From Eremomyces bilateralis CBS 781.70 (lineage: Eukaryota), in the NCBI GenBank assembly GCA_010015585.1, contig ML975152.1: a stretch of DNA of 64,000 bases. One strand, 5' to 3'. Each line of letters opens with the position of its first letter. The first letter of the stretch is position 1. Of the stretch, positions 34,899 to 62,160 are shown piece after piece. The notes beneath the pieces were generated by a model. That model searched no databases, was not told the DNA's origin, and saw only the letters and a list, made by a program, of their open reading frames with translations. The position numbers and the translations under genes are program-made.

Positions 34899-35027
34899 AT
34901 TATTTGTGATATTTCGTTTGCTTCCACCGTTCCACATTCCTTCCTTTCATAAAGTCCAACGCATGTAATTAGTCAGCTTAGGTAGTTCCCCACATGGGCC
35001 TCGCCGAGAGGCCTGACGGGCGTATGA

Positions 35028-35047
35028 ATCTCTCTCTCTCTCTCTCT
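35028..35047. repeat. (TC)n microsatellite
   Basis: About 10 TC units. Confidence 0.8.
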
Positions 35048-35898
35048 TTCATGAAGTCGGATCTGGATCCTCGATCTTTGGGTTGCTTAATAGTCAAGCA
35101 CAAGCGTTATCTCCTTGCTTAGAGTCTTATTGCTCGAGTACTGGATGGACTGACCACAGTGGAATGGTTGGTTTTCCCTAACCTCGCCAGCCTCACGGTA
35201 CCAAAGTCCGGAACAGACTGAAGCTTTAACTCAACACCAATGTCCTCCTGGCTACAGAGTACAGATACATACATGTAAGGCTCTGTCATCCAAATTACGG
35301 TACATTTAGGGCACCACATTCATGGCTAAACGATGAGGTCTTAACTTCCTCTTGGCTCCTGCTGGTTCGCAATGGCACTTTATGGCAGGTCTGTCCTTCA
35401 GTTCGCAGCGAGGTGTCTCAAGTCTAGTGGTAAATCCGGACCCTATTCTCCCGTTCCCTACTTGGTAGTTGCAAGATGCAGCAAAAGATGTAATCCTACA
35501 TCTCTAGCTCTCTTATCCGGGAACGAGAAGACATAGAGATCTTCATTTACGTGCTATTGGATCAGACTAAATACAGGATCGTTGCATTCACAAGGAACAG
35601 CACTATCACCTGCCCCTCCGAGCTATTGGTGAGCTCGCCCCAGAGTCTCAACCAAACCCTCAACGAAGAAGCTCGCTGCTCATGCAGTGGTCCTCAACAT
35701 TGAATGATGGCTTTATTAGGGTTCAAGGATAGAAAAACTAGAAACTTGGCTTTGCTTTCTTAACATCGTACGATACTGATTCTAGTCAAGTTATATACGG
35801 CCCACCCACCGTCCAACAACTCCATCAATTCTACCAATCTACCGTCCACCCCTGAGTCACTAGCACCCCTATCGGTCTTCGCCCTCGAACCCTTCACC

Positions 35899-37039
35899 AT
35901 GAAGCTCGCCGTCTTTTCCACCCAACCCTACGACCGCACCTACCTCACCCAGGCCATCGAAGCCCACAACACCTCCAACCCCCCCACTCCCCTCGAACCC
36001 CACTTTCACGCCCTCCCCCTGAGCCCCGCCACCACCCACCTCGCCGCCGCCTGCCCTGCCATCTGCGTCTTCGTCAACGACGACGTCTCCGCCCCGATCC
36101 TCACTGCCCTCCACGCCGCCGGCGTCCGCCTCATCCTCCTCCGCTGCGCCGGCTTCAACAATGTCGACATCCCCACCGCCACCGCGCTGGGCGTGCGCGT
36201 GGCGCGCATGAGCGCGTACAGCCCGGAGAGCGTGGCGGAATTCGCGCTCGCGCTGACGCTGACGCTGAATCGGAAGACGCATCGCGCGTTCAATCGAGTG
36301 CGGGAGGGGAACTTCGCGTTGGCGGGGCTGGAGGGGTTTCGGATGTATGGGGCGACGGTGGGGTTGCTGGGGACGGGGAAGATCGGGCTGTGCGCGGCGC
36401 GGATCTTCAAGGGGTTCGGGTGCCGGGTGTTGGGGTATGATCTGTTTCCGACCGAGCGGTTTACCGAGCTTGGGGGGGAGTATGCGTCGTTGGAGGAGGT
36501 GCTGAGGGTGTCGGATATTGTGAGCCTGCATTGTCCGTTGATCGACGCGTCGGCAGACCCGGAGGAGGCGAAGACGGAGAAGGGGAGAGGGACGAGGCAT
36601 ATTATCAACGCGGAGACGCTGGCGATGATGAAGCCAGGGGCCATGTTGGTGAACACCTCTCGCGGCGGGCTCATCGGTATGTATCCTGACGCCCTTCTTG
36701 TCCACACTCCCGAAACATCTACTCTAACCATCCGTTCCCGTAGATACCGCCGCCGTCATCACCGCGCTCAAGAAGAAAACTCTTGGCTCCCTCGCCATGG
36801 ACGTCTACGAAATGGAATCCTCTCTCTTCTACGTCGACCACTCTGGCGAGATCCTCGACGACGACGTCTTCGGCCGCCTGATGACCTTCCCGAACGTGCT
36901 GATCTGTGGGCACCAGGCGTTCTTCACAAAGGAGGCGCTGCAGGAGATCGCGGATGGGACGTGCCAGAATTTTCAGGACTGGGTTGTCGGGACGAAGTCG
37001 CCGAATGTGGTGGTGGAGGGGAGGGCGTTTGGTTCATGA
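35899..37039 (+). CDS. D-lactate dehydrogenase (D-2-hydroxyacid dehydrogenase), 1 intron
   Basis: LRCAGFNNVD, YSPESVAE, GTGKIG, SLHCPL, VNTSRGGLID, DVYEME, GHQAFFT. Intron at about 36677-36743. Confidence 0.93.
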
Positions 37040-37606
37040 AGGGGTGGGCTGGGAAGCTTGCTTGGCTTGAATGGGAGAGGCGAGGCTCCTGTGATGTTTT
37101 GAGTATGGATGGACACGTCATTGTGGTGATGACATTTGTATCCGTTAGCGATGAGCGTTTGATCGTGATGTTGGAATTCGTAGAATAGATATAATCCACG
37201 TGGAGGAACGTCCCTCAAATCTTATTCGATATTTTGAATTTTCATCTTTGAAGGCTATCAAGGTCATCTCAGACCCATGCAACTACATTCGGTTATCTTG
37301 AAACCAGAACATCCTCCTGCCAGTGATATTAGACAAGTACCCGGCGCCCGAGGGCTTTTTATGCCAATGCGAAAAACTCCACAACAATGGTCCCATACGA
37401 TCCCCAAACCACGACCAGATAATGGCATCGTTCTGAAAAAAGCCCAGACTCAGCATCGCTACCCAAACCTTACTCCAAAGATTTTCCGCCTCGTGGCAAT
37501 CGAATGGCAGCATCGAGAGGTCTAAATCGGCTGTTGTTTGCAAATCGTCGTGAACCGCAACGATCTCGTAAAACACATGGATACCAAACTCTGCTTCCCG
37601 CATCTT

Positions 37607-38460
37607 TCACCCGAGAAATACCGACGCGCAAATCCCAGCAATCATGACAACCCACCCGCCGTTCCCCACTCGCATCTGCCCGGCCGTACTGAGTTCAAAC
37701 GGACTGCCACCCCCTCCAGACTGCGGTTTCGCCTCCTGCGTGCTCCGTGGCGCTCCCGACGTCGAGCCTCCGCCAGGAGCTACTCCTGCATCCCCCGGTG
37801 GCGCACCCGTCGCCGTTTGTATCGGCAGATCCGACCCGTCACCCGACGTTTCCGACGACGAATCCCCGCCCCCCACGCTCGTATCCAACGTGGTCGTCGC
37901 GACGACAGGCGGCGTGCGCATCGGCGGTTCGGGCCCGCTCCTCGTGTCCATGAGCAGCCCGCCGGACTCGCCTGCTCCGGCATCTGGGTTAAGGGACGTC
38001 GGCCTCGCGTCGGGGCCAGATGGAGTGGAGGTGGAGATGATGGTGGTGCGCGCGATGGGGGTGCCGCAGAGGATTTCGATGCCTTTGCCGAAGAGGAAGA
38101 AGGCGAGGAGGGAGGTTTCGGGGAGGTCGACGTTGCTGCAGGCGAGGCGGAGGGAGGACTCGACTTGTGCGAGGCCTTGGATGCAGGAGGTGCTGCAGAC
38201 GGTGCCGCGGCTTTGGTTGGTCTGACGGAGACGGTTAGTGGGGAATAGTGGTGGGTGATGACGTCGCTTACTGGGAAATCCGCTTTTTGACATGATGGGA
38301 TGACGGCGGTGTAGGCGCGGGCACAGTTCGCCGGGAGAAGGTTCGGGTTGATTGCGGGCTGGAAATCGGATAATGAGACGGCCGTGATAAGTGGTAATAA
38401 GGTGAGGATGGAAAGGAGTATCGCTCTCGACGATAGACTCCGGGATGGACGTCGAGTCAT
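37607..38460 (-). CDS. Secreted/GPI- or TM-anchored Cys-containing, Ser/Thr/Gly-rich cell-surface protein (1 intron)
   Basis: Signal-like segment ILLSILTLLPLITA, Cys domain (C..AY..IPSC..DF..CSTSC..C..C), S/T/G/P linker, GGGSPF and a hydrophobic C-terminus. Confidence 0.75.
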
Positions 38461-38884
38461 GTTGTGAAGGTCTCGCGGGAATGCTGAGTCCGAATCGGGT
38501 GAGTATGAGGGGGGATAGAGAATCGTACGATCGATCGTCGGTCTAGTTTTCTGCAGATGTTGTTGCAGAGCGTTGTCTGATAGCTCTTCTTCCCGCTGAC
38601 CGAAGTACAGCAATGTCTTGGATTCGACCAGTGTCCAGAGAGCACACCAGATTAAGAACTAGATATTCCTACGGGGGTAGCTGTTGAAAAAGCGCAAGGA
38701 TCAATCAGCAATATAGCAAAGGGGCGGATTTTGCTGTGGCCAAGTGGGCCAACGATGAGGCCAGGCAGCTCTTCAATGTTGATTAGAAACGTCCGAACAG
38801 AAAGCGACCTTCCGGTGCTATGGAGAGAAAGGAATGGTCCAGAAGGAGAGGATGTGGAAAGGTCTGGAGTGACTGATGGCCAGG

Positions 38885-40340
38885 CGAGGGAAGACGAAGC
38901 TGAGACGCGCAGCGTTTCGAGCTCTCCGCGGCAGTCCTTCTGCGGAGAATAAGAGATCCGAGACTGCCGGAATACCAAAATTGTATCCCCGAATTAGACA
39001 GCCGAAAGGGCGAATTAAAACAGGTGTAAGCCCAGTTTAGATCTCGAACAAAACCCTCTGTTAACCGTTCTGGGTAGTGTTGGGGGAGGTACCGATATTG
39101 GTACAGCGGCGGGTATATTGCGAAGGTCGGTAAGGATGCAGTTGGATTTTCTTAGGATCCTTGAAAACGTCTCGAGCCGAGCCTGTCCGGTTTCGAATTG
39201 AAAGCCTGTGGTCCTGAGGCTCTTGAGAGGCGTGTAATGATGTTGATATGGAAACTTTGGTGGGTTGTTGTTTGGTCCGGAAGCGGAAATCGAGGTTTGT
39301 TGATGACTATCACCCGACCAACATATTCCTCTTCAAAAGTATTTTGGCTGTGAACCCGAAATAAATGTTCAACCTTATTTCTTCAGCTGCCAGTCCGGTA
39401 AATTAATAAATGTGAGTCGCTAGGTCTAGTCCGTTTTATTTCGTTGGCTCGGAATGGTGCAGAGAATTGAGACAGCGACAGATATCGTCCAAATAGTCGT
39501 TGGATCCGCGATGAGCAACAGTCAAATCCAAAAGAACAACTCCAGATTCTTTTGCAACGGTCGTACGAATTCAATCCCTCAAATTGATCGTTGCGATGCG
39601 AGTATGCGACCCAAGTTTCGGTTCCTGAAGCCGAAACAAGCAACCCGGCGGCCCGGGATATCAACTTCAAACGAGCTAGTCCACCTCACGACCCCAACCC
39701 AATGGAAATAAAGAGCCCGGGTAGTAGTGAAGCTGAGGCTGAAAAAGATCAGGTGTTTGAAACTTAATGAAAGAAAACCGTCTTTCCGTTTGGTTGCCAG
39801 ACAGGGCGCAAACGTCCGATTTAAACGAGCTCTGACAATGCAGCGGCCGGCAAGGAACAGGTCTAGAAAGGCAGAAAAGAAACTCAAACAAAACCCTAAT
39901 GGCCGCCCAGGGCTGGTCGAGAGCTTTAAGGAGTACAGGGTCGACGCTGGGGTGTTTGAGCGACAATCCGACTGGAATTGTGGCCGGGTATCTGCGATGG
40001 AATGCCGGATTAGGGTGGTGATGAACACCGACTTGCGGATCACGGGGAAAGCCTCGGGGTCGAATTCACGATCGCATGCCAATGGAGGAACCGAAGGCAG
40101 ACCGTTCAAAATAGCGATGGACAGCACCAGCACTGCTGAGTCCAGAAGCAGCAATGATGTAGTGGATGCCCGTGGATAGGGCCGGGACCGGAGATGGTTC
40201 GCGTGCTGGCGGTCGATCTGTGACCCGTTCAGGTTTGAATGCAAAGCACCAGTCTCAGACCGTGTGCGAAACCATCTCGTTCGTAAGACGATGAAGAAAC
40301 GAAGTCGAAAAAATGATGAAGAGAAAAAGAAGGCGGTTGC
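38885..40340 (-). ncRNA. Candidate long structured non-coding RNA or structured 5' leader (hypothesis)
   Basis: No credible ORF. Pyrimidine-rich TSS-like tract near 40290-40340. Nested helices with G-U pairs on the minus strand and two homologous hairpin modules (see findings). Confidence 0.45.
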
Positions 40341-41248
40341 AGGCGACACAAGATGGACTGCATAGAGGGCAAATTGCGAAGAATAACGCCCGCGTTTTAC
40401 CTCGAGATGCGGTCCCTCCATTTCACGTATCCCAGGGATTGGAGATGGCTAGCGACAAGAAGGCTGGTCATATCAGCTTCGGCGTCTCACCAGCGCCAGG
40501 TCTGAGGTCACCACCAGTTTCGCATCTCCAGCTGGTCGCCAACTTGTCATCCGATACTGGTACTGAGTGGAAAGTTGCGAGATGCACTAATATCTCACCG
40601 ATAGGGGGACAATTGGACAAAATGCGCCTGCAGCCAGCATCCGTTCGGAAACGCAGGGAGTTGAAGCGGTTACAAAGGTTCGGGGAGATATCGATTCGCT
40701 GGTCGATCGCGTTTCTGAAACACGGAAGACACGCTGGACGCCACTGCGTCATTTCCTTGGCTCTCTGCCCTGCTGCCCCTCCATCCATTCCCAGCCTCCC
40801 ACGTTGAACGTTTCAGGCTGTTTGCTCTCCATGAATGAGGAATCCTAATTTCCACCCGAATCTGATGGCTAATGGACGATGGTGATGTGTTTTCCACGTG
40901 AAAGCTCCCCTGACACCAGCACGTGATCCATAGCCTTGTGGCCTAAGGCTGCTGCCTCGATCCACTACAGTGTTGAGCGTCCAGGTCAAAAGTCAAGCCA
41001 AACACCACAAGTTCAATCAAGTGTTCAACATTCATTCCCTTTGGTTCCTTCATAAACATATGCTATGCTGGGTACCGGCACTCCGTATGAGTCTCCGGAT
41101 CTTATCAAAAACCCTTGCCATGCCATAGTCATCTTCCGTTGACATCCAGGGGGGGTCCCGCAGTGTCTTTTTCTTAACCACGAATCCATTACTCCTCTCC
41201 ACACAAGCCTCTGCTATTCCCTTCTGCAGTATTAATGCTTCCTCGTTT

Positions 41249-42400
41249 TTAAAACACCCATCTCTTCGCTTTGACTTTCGCGTAATGGACTAATCCCTCC
41301 AACTTCTGCCTTACCTCCGGATCGCCGCGACAATTCGGAGCGTCGAAATCTGTGGTGAACACGCTCACTGCAACGGCGCACTTTTTGATCACGAGCGTCT
41401 CGCCGGGCAAACGACAATCGCCGTTGATGCAGGCGTTAACCCCATCATTGAGATCATCACCATATTTGAATAGCCCCGTCGTCTCGTTATAGACCGCAAT
41501 ATCCACAACCGCGCCGCCAGTGAGTCGCGTCTGCACGTAGTTCGGTTCGGTGCAGGTATCTGTGATCAGGGGAATGTTGACATTCAATCCATATCCGAGT
41601 GGCAGCAGACGGTCTGAATCCTTCCTACGTCGCCAGTGGCCGTGTCCTTTGTCGAAGTTTTCTGCCAACCGGTCGACAATCGCCGTACTCAACTTTGCAT
41701 GCACCACCGCAACGTCCGCGGTGTCGCCGTCAGCCACGTCCGTGTACCCACGGTGGGTGCTGTTCACTGCGGAGAAAGCAATGCTCGGGATGCCGCGCTC
41801 GACGGCCGAATACGCAGCACCAAGAGATCCGGACAGCGTGAAGACGAAGGGTCCTGCGTTTGATCCCACATTGGGACCGGACACCATGAGGTCAGGCAGG
41901 ACGCCGGGGCCGAATGGTTCCTGTCTCGGGAGAACGTAGTCGAGGGCGAAGAACGTGCATGCTGCAGGCGTGCCGTTATAGTACCACATATGAGAGTCGT
42001 TGGGGTCTTGACCGAACTGTTCGAGCGTTAGCGTTGACGCCTCCAGCAAATCCATCTCTCTGGTTATTTGGACTTACAGATGGCGAGCCGGCTGGCACCG
42101 AGTCGAACTCACCAGGCGTAGTGAGGTTGCGCACGTCAGCGAAGACAACCTAATCCGTGTCAGCTACTGTTCAATTCATCTTCACGTCAACCATCCAGCT
42201 AAGTCACTTACAGTGCCGCCTTTAGCCGACTGCTGCACCGCGGGTGCCACGAGCAGGACATTATGACCCGACGCTTTTAATGCTTTGTAGAATTCTCGAA
42301 TGTTGGCTGCCGCCCAGGAATCGTCATTGTTCACCAATATGTTGAGCCCGCAGGCGGACGAGAGGAGCGATGCCCCAGCAACGATAGACGGCAACCGCAT
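41249..42400 (-). CDS. Secreted SurE-family 5'/3'-nucleotidase / acid phosphatase (spliced)
   Basis: Signal peptide, NILVNNDDSW, VAPAVQQSAKGG, NGTPAAC, DLMVSGPNVG, TLSGSLGAA motifs. Confidence 0.9.
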
Positions 42401-44135
42401 GATGTCCAATGATTCCAAGGATAACTAATTGAGCCTCCAAGTAGTCAATTGATCGGCCGTGGGCCCGGCTGGTTATTATTTAAGCTGGGGAAGACCCTCT
42501 CCCGTCTACACTTGTCTTATCCCAGATTCCTTCAGGCAATTTCGGCTTTCGCGGCGCCTTATCAGAACAATGCAACAATCGGATTATCGGACAGATCCGA
42601 CAGTCAATTGAATTTCCCGCCGTCATTCCTGGCTTCTGCGACAGTTGTGTATCATTGGCGCCCGCGGCATAATGTGGTCCCCATACGAGACTGCTCCATA
42701 GATGCTCACTCCGCTTGTACAGACACAGTAGGTGATGATTCCTCCCGCCTATCAGAATAATCGAAATTTCCCTAGGCGACTTGCGATAGCCTGCCCAACC
42801 TCGAAGGCGCTATGATCGGCGTCTACGGAGCGGGAGCACTTGTACGGATTGGGAAGCTGGTGCGGGACGTGATAGGAAGTAGACGCATCATGCAAAGGGT
42901 TACTATGTAATTAAGGAACATAACGATAAACTTGCTAATGCATGGCGGGGATACCGATTACAATCGACAGTAACAATAATATCTCGCAAGGGATATAGAT
43001 GCTAAAAGGGCCCTCGTTCCTCAGGTTGCGACCTTGATGGAATTAGGAATTGGTAAGAATTGACACATGCATGTTGGCTACGCTAGTTAGTAGAAAAGCT
43101 TGGTGAGCTTAGCTTAATTACCTATTGCTAACTAGTTAGTCAACTTGGGTTATGGTAACTATATATCAGCCACCAATTTCTTCTCTTTCTGTCCGATTGC
43201 CATGCTCCATCCCTACTGCTGGCAGAGCGAACTAATTATCGCCTATCATTTCTTTATCGTTGCATGAGACGTCCACATATGGGGCCATCAACTCTATCTT
43301 GCCACGCAGGGCACTAACATTAGGCGAATGGCCGACCAACGCACAATGGATCGTTCGTCGTCCAATTGAGCATGATACGAGAAGAAGCAGCCGTGGAATA
43401 GGTACAGACAACAAAAAAAAACAGTAGATCATGACTGACCGAGGTCTCTGGCGGCCCGAAAACGTGGTCGATATTCCGTTTGCGGGTTGTTGGTGTTGCT
43501 CGCCTCCTCGCATTGTTGAATATGCGTCTCCCTTTTGAGGAAGTGTACTGGTTCCCCGGAATCTAAGCGTACGTCAGTTACGGAATGTTTCGTTTCTGTA
43601 TGGCTCTCTTTCCTTCAGAGGGGAATTTCGGCTTTAACCGGCATATTGATGCTCGTGATCTAAGCTCACGTACTGCTAGATTCTTGTTTGCGTCTCGCCT
43701 TAGTCGGAAGGTATTATGGGATACTCAATATGGGATGAGCGACTTTCGTTTGATCAGCGGAAACGTTAACGATTAATGCTCATCTGACAACAGAAAGTGA
43801 GAAAGCCCAAACTCCTCACTACAGTTCTGAGGTGAGGATAATACTGTTCGATAACGGATGTGCGGGAGATGGTGTATTCTAAACCAAGGTAACTGGATTC
43901 AAGGCAACGAATTGGAGATTTACCAACATCCATAATCGTTTGTGACAAACATGGGGAGTTGAAAAAAGAGCAATGAAACGACACTGTGACCCAATCACCA
44001 CTGACGTGTCCTAGTAGCTACACCCCTTAGGCTGAGTATAAATATCCACAAGATAGGCTAGTTGGAAGGCCTGTAAAAGGTCGTCAAATTCCTGACTATA
44101 ATCATAACGGGAAACAGCTAAAGAAACCGAACACG

Positions 44136-45245
44136 ATGAACAACCAGCAGCACCAAGGTCCCGATGACGAGAGCATATGGTCGCCAAGAAGAGCGCACGC
44201 TTGGTATGAGAACAATCGCGCCCCCAGGCCAGTGAATTTGCAGTCTCACAGGCCGGGACCTGGCTCCTGGAATAGTTACCAGCCTCACAACATCGGTCAG
44301 CGCAATGCGATATGGCGAGGGTCCTCTTTGGTCAATGCCAATTTCAACCGGAATCTCAATTCTGATCAAGGCGCTTTGAATGATTTATGGGTCGGAAGAG
44401 GACGCCTTTGCAATGGGTACGGCCCTCACGATCGGACTCCAGTCTCTGGTCCACACGGACAGCCCACCCCTACTCCAATGGAGTATATCAGCCAAGCTCG
44501 GAGGCGTCCACTAGAGGACCACGTTTTCATGGACGCGTGGGCGACGTCGGAAACGATCGATCAAGCTGTCGGCCAAGGTCCCAGAAGACTGCACGCAGTT
44601 ACTAGAAGACGGTACGGATCCAGCACCACGAGTCCTACCAATGTAGTCTGGATCCACGATTCGCACACTGAGATTCCAGAACCAGCTAGGTCGACTTACT
44701 ACCTGGAATGCACGTTCGGATCCGATTGTCGTATCCTGGAGGACCATGCAAGGGCCGAGTCCTCTAGACCACCCAGCATAGACGGGTTGGTCCCGGATGA
44801 GATGGATGAAGAGCAATACGACCGGCTTGAACTAAGGGGCGGCGGAGGAAGCGTGTTAGAGGAGCATGAATGGCAATGCTGCAAGAAGAGTTGCAGAGGA
44901 CGCAAGAACACGAGCAGCCACACTTCGGGACGCCTGTGCAGATTCTGCGGGAGCAAGAAATGCGAGAATTGCATCGAGAAGCCAGAAATCTGCTTCTTTT
45001 GCAGCCAGAAAGGGGAGGAGATGTCCAATGCCCTTATCGTCTTCCGAAAGAAGTTCTCCAGGCAGTATTGCATGGAGTGCGGAACGAAAGCGTTGCAGTG
45101 CGTCCAATGCGACCAGACAAAAGGGGTCATGGCAGTGAGTGGCGACGCGAAACTTAACGAAGGAGAAGATCGATACTCAATGATCTGTCCTGATTGTGTC
45201 AAGAAACAGAAAGCATTGGCCCAGTTCAAGATGTGCAGAATGTAA
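44136..45245 (+). CDS. Orphan protein with disordered N-terminus and Cys-rich multi-CxxC zinc-binding C-terminus
   Basis: 369-aa intronless ORF with WQCCKKSC..CRFC..CENC..CFFC..CMEC..CVQC..CPDC. TATA-like elements at ~44037 and ~44097. Confidence 0.65.
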   Translation: MNNQQHQGPDDESIWSPRRAHAWYENNRAPRPVNLQSHRPGPGSWNSYQPHNIGQRNAIWRGSSLVNANFNRNLNSDQGALNDLWVGRGRLCNGYGPHDRTPVSGPHGQPTPTPMEYISQARRRPLEDHVFMDAWATSETIDQAVGQGPRRLHAVTRRRYGSSTTSPTNVVWIHDSHTEIPEPARSTYYLECTFGSDCRILEDHARAESSRPPSIDGLVPDEMDEEQYDRLELRGGGGSVLEEHEWQCCKKSCRGRKNTSSHTSGRLCRFCGSKKCENCIEKPEICFFCSQKGEEMSNALIVFRKKFSRQYCMECGTKALQCVQCDQTKGVMAVSGDAKLNEGEDRYSMICPDCVKKQKALAQFKMCRM

Positions 45246-45910
45246 GTTCAAAAGATATTCAACCACCAGAAACTCGGGTAGAGGATTGATCAGCTTCGAC
45301 GACATGTGCTATTGAGTTGCATTGCTGATGGTGAGGACTAGTCCTACCCTGATACATATAGCTAGTTTAAAGAGAATTTAGACAATGAGAGACTTCCGTA
45401 TCTTATCCCAGCCGTTTGAGTGGCTATCTTGGATGGTATTTTGAACCATATACATTGAGTAGCTCAAGCTGTCCGTATCATGATGGGTGGGGATTGTGTC
45501 TACGGACACGATAATGTCAACGCCGACCAAACCGACATATCCCCGTTCCATTGACAGTCTGCATCGATCGGATTAATTGTGACGTATAGAGCCTATTTTC
45601 CTGGAGGATTGTCTATGTATGTACGGAATTGGGTGTTGTCGGTCGAAGTGAACCGAAGCCGGAGGATGTTGCGGGGAGAATATGAACTGTGGGTCCCGGA
45701 CTGGACTTTGTCAGCTCGTGTCGGCGATGTGTCGATGTCAACTCTTCCTGTTCATCAAACCGAGTGCATTGGCTTATCCCATTGACAAACCTGAGTCGAC
45801 ATTATTCGCTATACATTCTTTCGCGAGTGGTGTTGCAATGAAGGCCATCGCTTATGATCGACGATACCACGACCGTATAAACTGTGTACAAGTCAGGTGC
45901 ATTCGTTAAG

Positions 45911-60378: not shown

Positions 60379-61262
60379 GAGGGTCTAAAGCATGAGCATC
60401 TGAAGCTGGCGTCGTGTGGAGGAGTGAGCATCGATGGAGGTCGCGCCGTGTGAGTCATACAGCCAAATAGACCCCCGAAAACGGAGGTCTTCTTGCCGTC
60501 TGGTTGTTTGAGTAATAGATGTCTGATAGACGAAGATATTAATTCACAACTAGAGCTGTAATCCACCAGCGACCTAGCCACACCACCGAGTTAGTCACTT
60601 CAGCTCAATAACGACGATCGGTACCGTTTTTTCGAGATGCCTCGACAACAACAGCCTCAATTGTCCTCAAACGAGGCTAATATAAATTTAGCTAAAATGG
60701 CTATTGATTAAGGCCAAATTCGATCGAAGGATTTTATCTCTCTCTTTTGTTGCTTCTAAGTTAGATGTGCTGCCAGATCCAAAAATGACATCATCGAGAA
60801 CCGTTGGGGATCTCGCTGTGGCTGTGTGTAGGATCCCCGGAGCTTGGCGTGGTCGATCATACCAAGCTCCGGGGCGGCCTGGCACGACATCCTTCGCACG
60901 CTCTCCTGGTTCCGATTCTGGTCCCACAAACAGTATTCTACCACGGAACCATCCGCACGCTCCGTAGATTGCACGCTGGCTCTTAAAAGTGCGCTCTTTT
61001 GGAGTACACGCTCCCTTCCGTGTAGCCCTCCTCCCACGGCTACTCTCGTAAGATCTCGCTCCCACGACCACTCGCCCACGAACACATTAATACGAACACT
61101 TCCCACAACCATTCTCTCTCACGGTCGCCGCTCCACGGACATCCTCTCACAATTGCCACTCTCCCACGACCACTCTTCCACAATCCCCACAACCGCACGG
61201 TCGTTGTCACATGATCAGAGATATCTCTCCTCCACCACAGAGATGTCGTGTAACGCATTTCT

Positions 61263-62030
61263 TGTTATGGTCCCAGGCCTGCGGCCTGTTCCCTTGGTTG
61301 TGGCTGAAGACGTGGCTGGTGGATTATATCAGAGAAGCAAACAAACATGGTAACACAGCAGTAGGGCATTGGAGAGGAGAGTCGCTATCTCGCGCACAAA
61401 GGTGCCGGGAGATTTCTTCTCTCTCTCTCTCTCTTCAGTTTAGATTAATGGAACTTGGTAATCGCAGACCTTGCGCATCCAGACCGTGTCAACAACGAGC
61501 ATTATAGAGAAAGCCAACGTATTAGAAGAAATAAAGAAGGTCGCCGGAGAAGTAAGGAGGCGATACCCAGGCGAGAAAACGATAGATGAATATATCGCTG
61601 CCCTTCTAAAGGATATTAAGGAACGAGAAGGACCCGCCGCTGCGTAAGCGAAGGACTAGGTATTATTAGGACTAAGCCGTAGTATCCTTCCGAAGCTAGT
61701 AACCTTCGACGGTATTAAACGATCTAAATACCCGACTTTTAAAGATTAGGTAAAGAATAAGCTCGCGGTTAACCTGGCTAGAAATAACGAAAGCATACGA
61801 GTAGCCTATATATAAGCTTTCCTCGTGGGTCAAGCAGTAAAATACGTATAATACTTCATCTCGTCGGGACGAACTCTTAATATACTAACGACCGTTAGCG
61901 GCCTGTTTAAGTACCTTAACCGACGCTATATAGATCCCTATAAAGCGACTCGAGCGATAGATACCTACGGACAATTTAAGCAGGGTAATATAGACTTTAT
62001 CGAGTTCGTATCGGAACTCGACCGTCTTTA
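61263..62030 (+). mobile_element. Truncated Ty3/gypsy-like retrotransposon: 5' LTR (61263-61491) plus RIP-mutated gag
   Basis: The LTR matches 58603-58831. The frame from 61504 reads ..LPKLVTFDGIKRSKYPTFKD*..L..RYIDP..FKQGNIDFIEFVSELDRL. All its stops are TAA/TAG and TpA is in strong excess. Confidence 0.8.
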
Positions 62031-62160
62031 AATAGAGGTAAGAATTAATAAGTAAAAGAGACGACGGCATGTCGACCGCCAGAATGGCTGACTTGCCCCA
62101 CTGTGCACGCTTATATTAACTTAACGAACCTGACCCTATCAAAATCGCCCACTACTTTAA

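Follow-up and report, generated by a model that had tools for sequence, protein, structure and literature searches.

Introduction

The 5' leaders of fungal mRNAs are usually 100-300 nt in length. Leaders in the kilobase range are rare in fungi, and those that have been tested, namely WOR1, UME6 and EFG1 of Candida albicans, control the translation of key developmental genes. One report (PMC4552353) gives 5' untranslated regions (UTRs) of 1997 bp for WOR1, 1662 bp for CZF1 and 1139 bp for EFG1 in C. albicans, where those of other genes are mostly shorter than 100 bp, and describes the WOR1 5' UTR as free of upstream open reading frames (uORFs) that begin with AUG and as lowering translational efficiency. 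The C. albicans EFG1 5' UTR is the subject of a further report (PMC6034079). Here we describe a region of the filamentous Dothideomycete Eremomyces bilateralis CBS 781.70 that is probably a leader of comparable length. The region is located at 38885-40340 in a 64-kb window (64,000 nt of contig ML975152.1, assembly GCA_010015585.1; all positions refer to this window) and lies upstream of a minus-strand gene for a predicted cell-surface protein, the start codon of which is at 38460. A first-pass annotation had proposed that it is either a stand-alone structured noncoding RNA (ncRNA) or small-RNA precursor, or a structured 5' UTR of ~1.9 kb. The data described below are most consistent with a very long 5' UTR that is depleted of AUG and shows no excess of structure.

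Several other kinds of RNA provide points of reference for such a locus. Long undecoded transcript isoform (LUTI) mRNAs, of which NDC80luti in budding yeast is an example, are 5'-extended and blocked by uORFs, so that they are not decoded. At FLO11, the long noncoding RNAs (lncRNAs) ICR1 and PWR1 traverse the promoter and are not part of the mRNA; we know of no selection against AUG in lncRNAs of this type. Among the 5' UTRs of fungal cell-wall protein mRNAs, some are bound by Ssd1/GUL-1 at CNYUCNYU sites (PMC8934651). The telomerase RNAs of Pezizomycotina are noncoding Pol II transcripts, given by Qi et al. (2012; PMC3592445) as ~2 kb (a class of 1.2-2 kb), with a length of 2049 nt and a template of 9 nt in Neurospora crassa.

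RNA evidence for the upstream region

The RNA data were Logan contigs from run X1 (the kind of run was guessed; 0.93 of sampled words), which were compared with 35000-45500. Contigs of this type reveal neither the strand, the ends nor the local level of a transcript, and they may merge overlapping transcripts. Contig depths of 108.7 for record 4 and 16.7 for record 5 are per-contig means from which no ranking was drawn, and the absence of cover at 40797-40866 and 43073-45500 was not used as evidence. The run contains spliced RNA, as indicated by four joints with canonical intron ends at 36675/36743 (GT..AG), 38221/38272, 42016/42078 and 42147/42210 (the last three CT..AC).

Record 4 (3619 nt) spans 37128-38221 and 38272-40796 with the 50-nt intron of the surface-protein gene removed, and shows no other joint, difference or break. 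The whole of 38885-40340 is therefore present in RNA and is joined to the spliced surface-protein gene. Whether the transcript is continuous with the coding sequence at 38460-37607 had been raised in the first-pass annotation, and continuity is found in so far as a single contig runs from 40796 to 37128 without the intron, this being a strandless contig that may merge transcripts.

Depletion of AUG on the minus strand

The number of ATGs expected was derived from dinucleotide shuffles (n = 5000), and the lengths of ATG-free gaps were compared on both strands of the window. In the 1614 nt immediately upstream of the start codon (38461-40074), the minus strand has one ATG compared with 16.3±3.3 in shuffles, none of the 5000 having so few (shuffle minimum, 6). 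When the interval is extended to 40340 (38461-40340, 1880 nt) the count rises to three, with 19.5±3.5 expected (0/5000 shuffles). The plus strand is normal over both intervals, with 28 ATGs against 28.0 expected and 39 against 35.0, respectively. The density on the minus strand is also normal further upstream (ten ATGs against 11.9 expected at 40078-40796); across the whole of 38461-40796 there are 12 minus-strand ATGs compared with 28.2 in shuffles, and 11 of the 12 are located above 40076.

The depletion is seen as a pair of ATG-free gaps that lie next to each other, one of 864 nt (38460-39324) and the other of 753 nt (39324-40077). These are the two longest gaps in the 64 kb on either strand, the next longest being 483 and 480 nt, and the 864-nt gap terminates exactly at the annotated start codon at 38460. 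Within the desert the ratio of observed to expected ATGs is 0.12, the lowest among the 64 trinucleotides (runner-up, 0.62). In windows of 1600 nt, the minimum for the minus strand (two ATGs; mean 27.1, sd 6.6) is found at this locus. On the basis of the ATG counts, the two gaps and the cover by record 4, the AUG-depleted core of the leader is assigned to 38461-40077. Three mini-uORFs are found on the minus strand: one of six codons (40255-40275), which may be upstream of, or too close to, the transcription start site (TSS), one of three codons (40066-40077) and one of four codons (39310-39324), whose ATG is the sole one to be found over the final 1.6 kb of the leader.

Selection against upstream AUGs is expected in leaders that are scanned by ribosomes during initiation. 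As the depletion is confined to one trinucleotide and one strand and ends at the start codon, we consider it to reflect such selection, and hence a scanned leader. The depletion ties the RNA to the minus strand and the downstream gene although the contigs carry no strand; a simple strand-specific count of this kind can match a long 'intergenic' transcript with its gene and its strand when the RNA data are not stranded.

A separate interval on the plus strand, 60785-62069, contains two of the three longest ATG-free gaps of that strand, one of 426 nt (60785-61211) and one of 483 nt (61586-62069), and its lowest ATG counts per 1600 nt (10-11, compared with a mean of 29.5). The ATGs that close these gaps begin only short open reading frames (ORFs). 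This interval may be a second long leader or an effect of composition.

RNA structure

The first-pass annotation had emphasized nested long-range helices on the minus strand. The helix and hairpin segments that it named are present and their arms are complementary, and it was correct in noting that G-U pairs favour the minus strand: the duplex energy of the outer helix (39738-39761 with 39368-39387) is -14.9 kcal/mol on the minus strand compared with -12.6 kcal/mol on the plus strand, and that of the inner helix (39692-39712 with 39435-39454) is -16.6 compared with -12.0 kcal/mol. The 8-bp hairpin at 39529-39554 on the minus strand also exists, as a perfect stem.

The helices do not exceed what is expected by chance. 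The minimum free energy (MFE) of the minus strand at 39360-39770 (411 nt), which encloses both helices, is -108.7 kcal/mol compared with -109.5±5.7 kcal/mol in shuffles (z = +0.13), a value that is equalled or bettered by 56 of 100 shuffles; the plus strand of this segment has z = -0.29. Across 38461-40796, 30 windows of 150 nt have a mean z of +0.13 on the minus strand (sd 0.99, minimum -1.89, 0/30 below -2) and -0.08 on the plus strand (1/30 below -2). Over longer minus-strand segments, z is +2.08 for 38885-39884, where 19/20 shuffles fold equally well or better, and +0.22 for 39341-40340, where 12/20 do so. The z-scores are thus indistinguishable from those of shuffled DNA, which is the result that had been named beforehand as speaking against a structured RNA.

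The two long helices are also sensitive to context. For the outer helix, 17 pairs are present in the MFE structure of the excised segment 39360-39770, but all are lost in each of three larger contexts. The inner helix contributes no pairs in any of four folding contexts. Among the claimed stems only two are robust. The 7-bp hairpin GUUUCGG/CCGAAAC (39615-39637, minus strand) retains its seven pairs in all four contexts, and the minus-strand hairpin CGGCAGUC/GACUGCCG (38929-38969), with 8 bp perfectly paired, has 12 pairs in the MFE structure in both of the contexts that contain it. Nested helices paired by hand within 1.4 kb are to be expected by chance, as ~95 complementary runs of at least 9 bp are expected there, and a z-score is needed before structure is called.

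A covariance-model search of the whole window with Rfam 15, whose 4227 models include telomerase RNA, RNase P/MRP, SRP, snoRNAs and riboswitches, gave no matches at the gathering score. At E<=10 the interval 38400-41000 has only one match, a junk match to HIV-1_SD (17 nt, E=2, 18.8 bits compared with a gathering score of 30), and one further match with E=8.8 is outside the region. No tRNA was found. Because the z-scores match those of shuffles, the long helices are unstable to context and there is no Rfam match at the gathering score, the proposal of a stand-alone structured RNA is not supported. The absence of excess structure, with a z of +2.08 for the kilobase proximal to the gene, fits a scanned leader.

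Coding potential

The first-pass annotation had labelled the region as noncoding, which holds even though a 280-codon ATG ORF had been overlooked. This ORF (P0001; 40421->39579, minus strand) is inside the RNA contig. When P0001 was searched against 5.8 billion proteins, none of 2032 candidates reached E<=0.01; P0001 itself is missing from this collection, in which the neighbouring annotated protein is present. There were no matches among 1.84 billion representatives and no Pfam family was found. The codon score of P0001 is -0.044 and its GC content is flat across the three codon positions (0.51/0.50/0.56). The start is its only Met, its translation is rich in Arg, Ser, Leu and Phe as in a random translation, and the ATG-free zone covers its 3' 166 codons. 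The codon bias that marks 11 real exons is seen in none of 14 ORFs or frames from the region, the frame-0 codon scores ranging from -0.126 to +0.077 in the region and from +0.043 to +0.263 in the real exons, with -0.027 for the exon-1 control. From these sequence properties we judge P0001 to be a chance frame on a pyrimidine-rich strand. Counting against this verdict is the length of the open frame, 289 codons, which is matched in only 4/1000 shuffles of the leader.

We note that the density of stop codons is locally low at 39700-40180, where three of the six frames are open together, two of them on the minus strand (289 and 129 codons) and one on the plus strand (155 codons). There is no coding signal here.

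Pyrimidine tracts and candidate promoters

In filamentous fungi, CT boxes are found just upstream of transcription start sites. The first-pass annotation had pointed to a pyrimidine-rich tract at the distal end of the region, and this tract is real: the minus strand at 40287-40336 has a pyrimidine (Y) fraction of 0.84, which no other 50-mer in 38461-40900 equals and which is higher than the window's 99.9th percentile (0.80). We regard it as a candidate for a promoter-proximal pyrimidine box and place the probable TSS just downstream. The probable 5' end of the leader is placed at 40078-40340 (minus strand), which includes the tract and is where the ATG density shifts from normal to depleted.

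A second CT-rich tract is located at 38823-38872 on the minus strand (Y fraction 0.80), which places it ~365-410 nt upstream of the start codon. Within it are three overlapping motifs of the CNYUCNYU type at 38850, 38836 and 38831, including CAUUCCUU. Such motifs are not enriched: there are five, for a shuffle mean of 5.86±2.41, and 1405 of 2000 shuffles have at least as many. The tract may act as a proximal promoter box or as a binding site for a protein of the Ssd1/GUL-1 type.

Upstream of the probable 5' end, the segment 40341-40796 is transcribed (record 4; no strand is assigned) and has a normal ATG density, with eight minus-strand ATGs between 40788 and 40363. This segment could be the tail of, or read-through from, the neighbouring SurE-like gene, a minor distal start of the surface-protein transcript or an antisense RNA.

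Proposed role of the leader and alternative explanations

In our view, the region is a very long, AUG-depleted 5' UTR of the mRNA for the cell-surface protein, transcribed from the minus strand; we give this interpretation a probability of roughly 0.7. The AUG desert implies a leader of at least ~1.6 kb, and the length is probably about 1.8-1.9 kb. The suggestion of a ~1.9-kb structured 5' UTR is thus retained with respect to its length, for which the spliced contig and the AUG depletion argue, and is not retained with respect to its structure, given the z of +2.08 for the proximal kilobase. Transcription would start just past the CT-rich tract at 40287-40336 to give a single molecule carrying the leader and the coding sequence. 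The 40S subunit would enter at the cap and scan the full leader to the first good AUG, that at 38460. Because the whole leader would have to be scanned, nearly all upstream AUGs would have been purged by selection, leaving the mini-uORFs of six, three and four codons, and selection would not have built up stable structure either. Such a leader would be expected to reduce or gate translation of the surface protein, whether by its length, by a dependence on helicases or RNA-binding proteins, or by a choice between the distal and proximal promoters. It would most likely belong to a class of translational control regions that is rare and has been described before.

More tentatively, and as a possibility that we rate well below the 5' UTR itself, the AUG-free and unstructured leader of at least 1.6 kb may be a selected translational platform that acts together with a proximal promoter at 38823-38872, such that two isoforms are translated differently or that ribosomes enter independently of the cap under stress. 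If so, a mechanism that to our knowledge has been tested only for Candida regulators would extend to the Pezizomycotina and to surface proteins, and strand-specific AUG deserts that abut start codons would provide a sequence-only signature for such leaders in unannotated fungal genomes.

A number of observations weigh against a long 5' UTR. A contig that crosses neighbouring genes is no proof of a single molecule, and record 4 enters the last 60 nt of the ORF of a convergent dehydrogenase gene (37128-37188). The locus is carried by a single run from one study. The contig reaches 40796, ~450 nt past the proposed TSS and into normal ATG density, and a transcript from 40796 would have 12 upstream AUGs, including that of the 280-codon ORF. 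Were the tract at 38823-38872 the main promoter, as it could be, the long form would be no more than a minor isoform. The sole other homologue found for the surface protein (40% identity across 22% of the query) is very distant. Lastly, the minus strand of 38885-40340 has 140 complementary runs of at least 9 bp (G-U allowed) compared with 94.9±11.6 in shuffles (0/40). The 140 runs also exceed the ~95 in whole-sequence and 50-nt-block shuffles (0/25 each). On the plus strand there are 141 runs, compared with 104 in whole-sequence shuffles (0/25) and 119 in 50-nt-block shuffles (4/25 reach this number). One of five control strands, the minus strand at 42600-44055, is likewise in excess (110 compared with 83 and 91, 0/25 each) and the other four are not. 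The longest run in the region is 12 bp, which is shorter than in all 40 shuffles. We tentatively read the excess, which is not matched by a lower folding energy, as a higher-order texture of the sequence rather than as structure.

The possibility that the region encodes a separate sense ncRNA, which crosses and represses the promoter of the surface-protein gene in the manner of ICR1 at FLO11 or SRG1 at SER3, or that it represents a LUTI-type isoform, with the productive mRNA arising from near 38823-38872, is in our view unlikely. Several observations fit it: the contig continues beyond the desert to 40796 through eight minus-strand ATGs (40788-40363), including the start of P0001, a second CT-rich tract is found ~370-410 nt upstream of the start codon, and contigs are unable to separate overlapping transcripts. 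What decides against it is the desert, since neither an untranslated lncRNA nor a uORF-silenced isoform would have cause to lose ~15 ATGs from one strand over 1.6 kb up to the start codon. LUTIs are defined by competing uORFs, and this 1.6 kb has one of four codons; blocking uORFs would be present only in a form that starts upstream of 40363. The RNA might instead derive mainly from the plus strand as an antisense or divergent transcript, for example an lncRNA or a telomerase RNA, that begins at the promoter of the surface-protein gene and extends in the direction of the SurE-like gene's 3' end. The contigs are strandless, and 3' ends that converge to within ~70 nt of each other (40796 and 40867) would be a natural arrangement. 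The plus strand also contains an 8-nt telomere-template-like sequence, AACCCTAA, at 39892-39899, and a long RNA would suit the Pezizomycotina telomerase RNAs (PMC3592445). We nevertheless regard a plus-strand RNA as very improbable, as the AUG depletion is confined to the minus strand and the plus strand has no excess structure. The AACCCTAA 8-mer is at chance level (four in the window, ~0.4 expected in the stretch), and the N. crassa template is one nucleotide longer. Rfam includes an ascomycete telomerase model. A telomerase RNA was rejected because of the chance level of the 8-mer and because the Rfam models give no match at E<=10 on either strand apart from the junk match; this includes the pseudoknot and P6/P6.1 elements, for which no dedicated P6.1 search was made.

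We consider it extremely unlikely that the minus strand here encodes an independent structured ncRNA or a precursor of small RNAs. Such an RNA would account for the listed helices, which exist and are stronger on this strand, for the excess of short complementary runs and for transcription of the region. The folding results given above run consistently against it (z of +0.13 and -0.29 for the two strands of the core, a window mean of +0.13, and z of +2.08 and +0.22 for the 1-kb pieces), the outer and inner helices are lost in 3/3 and 4/4 contexts, and the excess of runs is shared by the plus strand (in whole-sequence shuffles) and by one control region. No Rfam family reaches its gathering score and there is no excess of folding energy on either strand. 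A C/D-box small nucleolar RNA would require the box motif UGAUGA, which contains an AUG, and the minus strand has one AUG there. It is likewise highly unlikely that the 280-codon ORF at 40421->39579 is an unannotated orphan protein gene with an mRNA that overlaps that of the downstream gene. The length of its open frame is hard to obtain by shuffling and it is within the RNA contig, but it has no homologue, Pfam family or codon-position bias (-0.044 compared with +0.04 to +0.26 in the 11 real exons), and its start is its only Met, with the ATG-free zone extending through its 3' 166 codons. A long 5' UTR of the surface-protein mRNA remains the explanation that we favour.

The cell-surface protein gene and its neighbours

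The gene downstream of the leader, P0002 (38460->37607, minus strand), is real, as the first-pass annotation had assumed: its product is 100% identical to a 267-amino-acid 'hypothetical protein' of E. bilateralis CBS 781.70 at NCBI, and 38460 is its annotated start. The AUG is in a good context (CACAAC-AUG, with A at -3). Exon 1 (38272-38460) encodes a signal peptide and the start of a Cys-rich domain, and is followed by the 50-nt intron (38222-38271) that is spliced out in the RNA contig at the joint 38221/38272 (CT..AC). Exon 2 (37607-38221) continues the Cys-rich domain and also encodes a stalk rich in Ser, Thr, Pro and Gly and the C-terminus, which is hydrophobic. From these features the protein is predicted to be a secreted or glycosylphosphatidylinositol (GPI)-type cysteine-rich cell-surface protein. 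No Pfam family was found for it. The nearest structural cluster in the ESM-Atlas is auto-named 'Extracellular membrane protein CFEM domain-containing protein' (TM 0.73), which we take only as a lead; a feature search of the ESM-Atlas with P0002 gave no usable match, and the Cys-rich domain (residues 25-130) as a query returned only itself (one of 34 candidates).

The window derives from a fungus, as indicated by spliceosomal introns with GT..AG ends that are spliced out in RNA. The region at 38885-40340 is located in a gap of ~2.8 kb that is flanked by two minus-strand genes, P0002 and the SurE-like gene (Pfam), the upstream neighbour, which extends from 41249 upward. On the other side of P0002 and convergent to it is the plus-strand gene for a 2-hydroxyacid dehydrogenase (Pfam; 35899-37188, with its stop at 37188). 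The 3' ends of the surface-protein and dehydrogenase genes overlap or abut in RNA at 37128-37188. Further Pfam families in the window are a family-B DNA polymerase and an ArAE/FUSC transporter. At 44031-45245 on the plus strand there is a 404-codon open frame with no Pfam family and a weak codon score (+0.043).

Comparison with known systems

The region resembles the Pezizomycotina telomerase RNAs in its length and in the 8-nt match of the CCCTAA type on the plus strand. It differs in that this match is at chance level, no Rfam match to a pseudoknot or to P6/P6.1 is found and the AUG signature is on the other strand. With the targets of Ssd1/GUL-1 the locus has in common a surface-protein mRNA that would have a pyrimidine-rich leader with three of the relevant motifs (38831-38850); the lack of enrichment of CNYUCNYU (5 compared with 5.86±2.41) is a difference.

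The locus shares with FLO11 and its ICR1/PWR1 transcripts a cell-surface gene with an unusually long transcribed upstream region. It shares with LUTI loci RNA that is continuous into the coding sequence and the possibility of two promoters, one distal (near 40287-40336 or further upstream) and one proximal (38823-38872). Unlike in a LUTI, the 1.6 kb before the start codon is nearly free of AUG, an argument in favour of a long form that is intended for decoding. Neither the ICR1/PWR1 type nor the LUTI type predicts an AUG desert, and both are rivals for the part upstream of 40340.

The WOR1-type leaders of C. albicans are the most similar. Like these, the E. bilateralis leader is in the kilobase range and nearly AUG-free, and a role of structure is not demonstrated; the contig is continuous with the coding exons, with the proviso that it may merge transcripts. 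The differences from WOR1, CZF1, EFG1 and UME6 are that the host is a filamentous Dothideomycete, that the product is a cell-surface protein rather than a transcription factor, that the leader may contain three mini-uORFs and that its TSS is placed by inference. A leader of 1.6-1.9 kb that has been purged of AUG in a surface-protein gene of a Dothideomycete suggests that the same layer of control is present in filamentous fungi and acts on genes for the cell surface.

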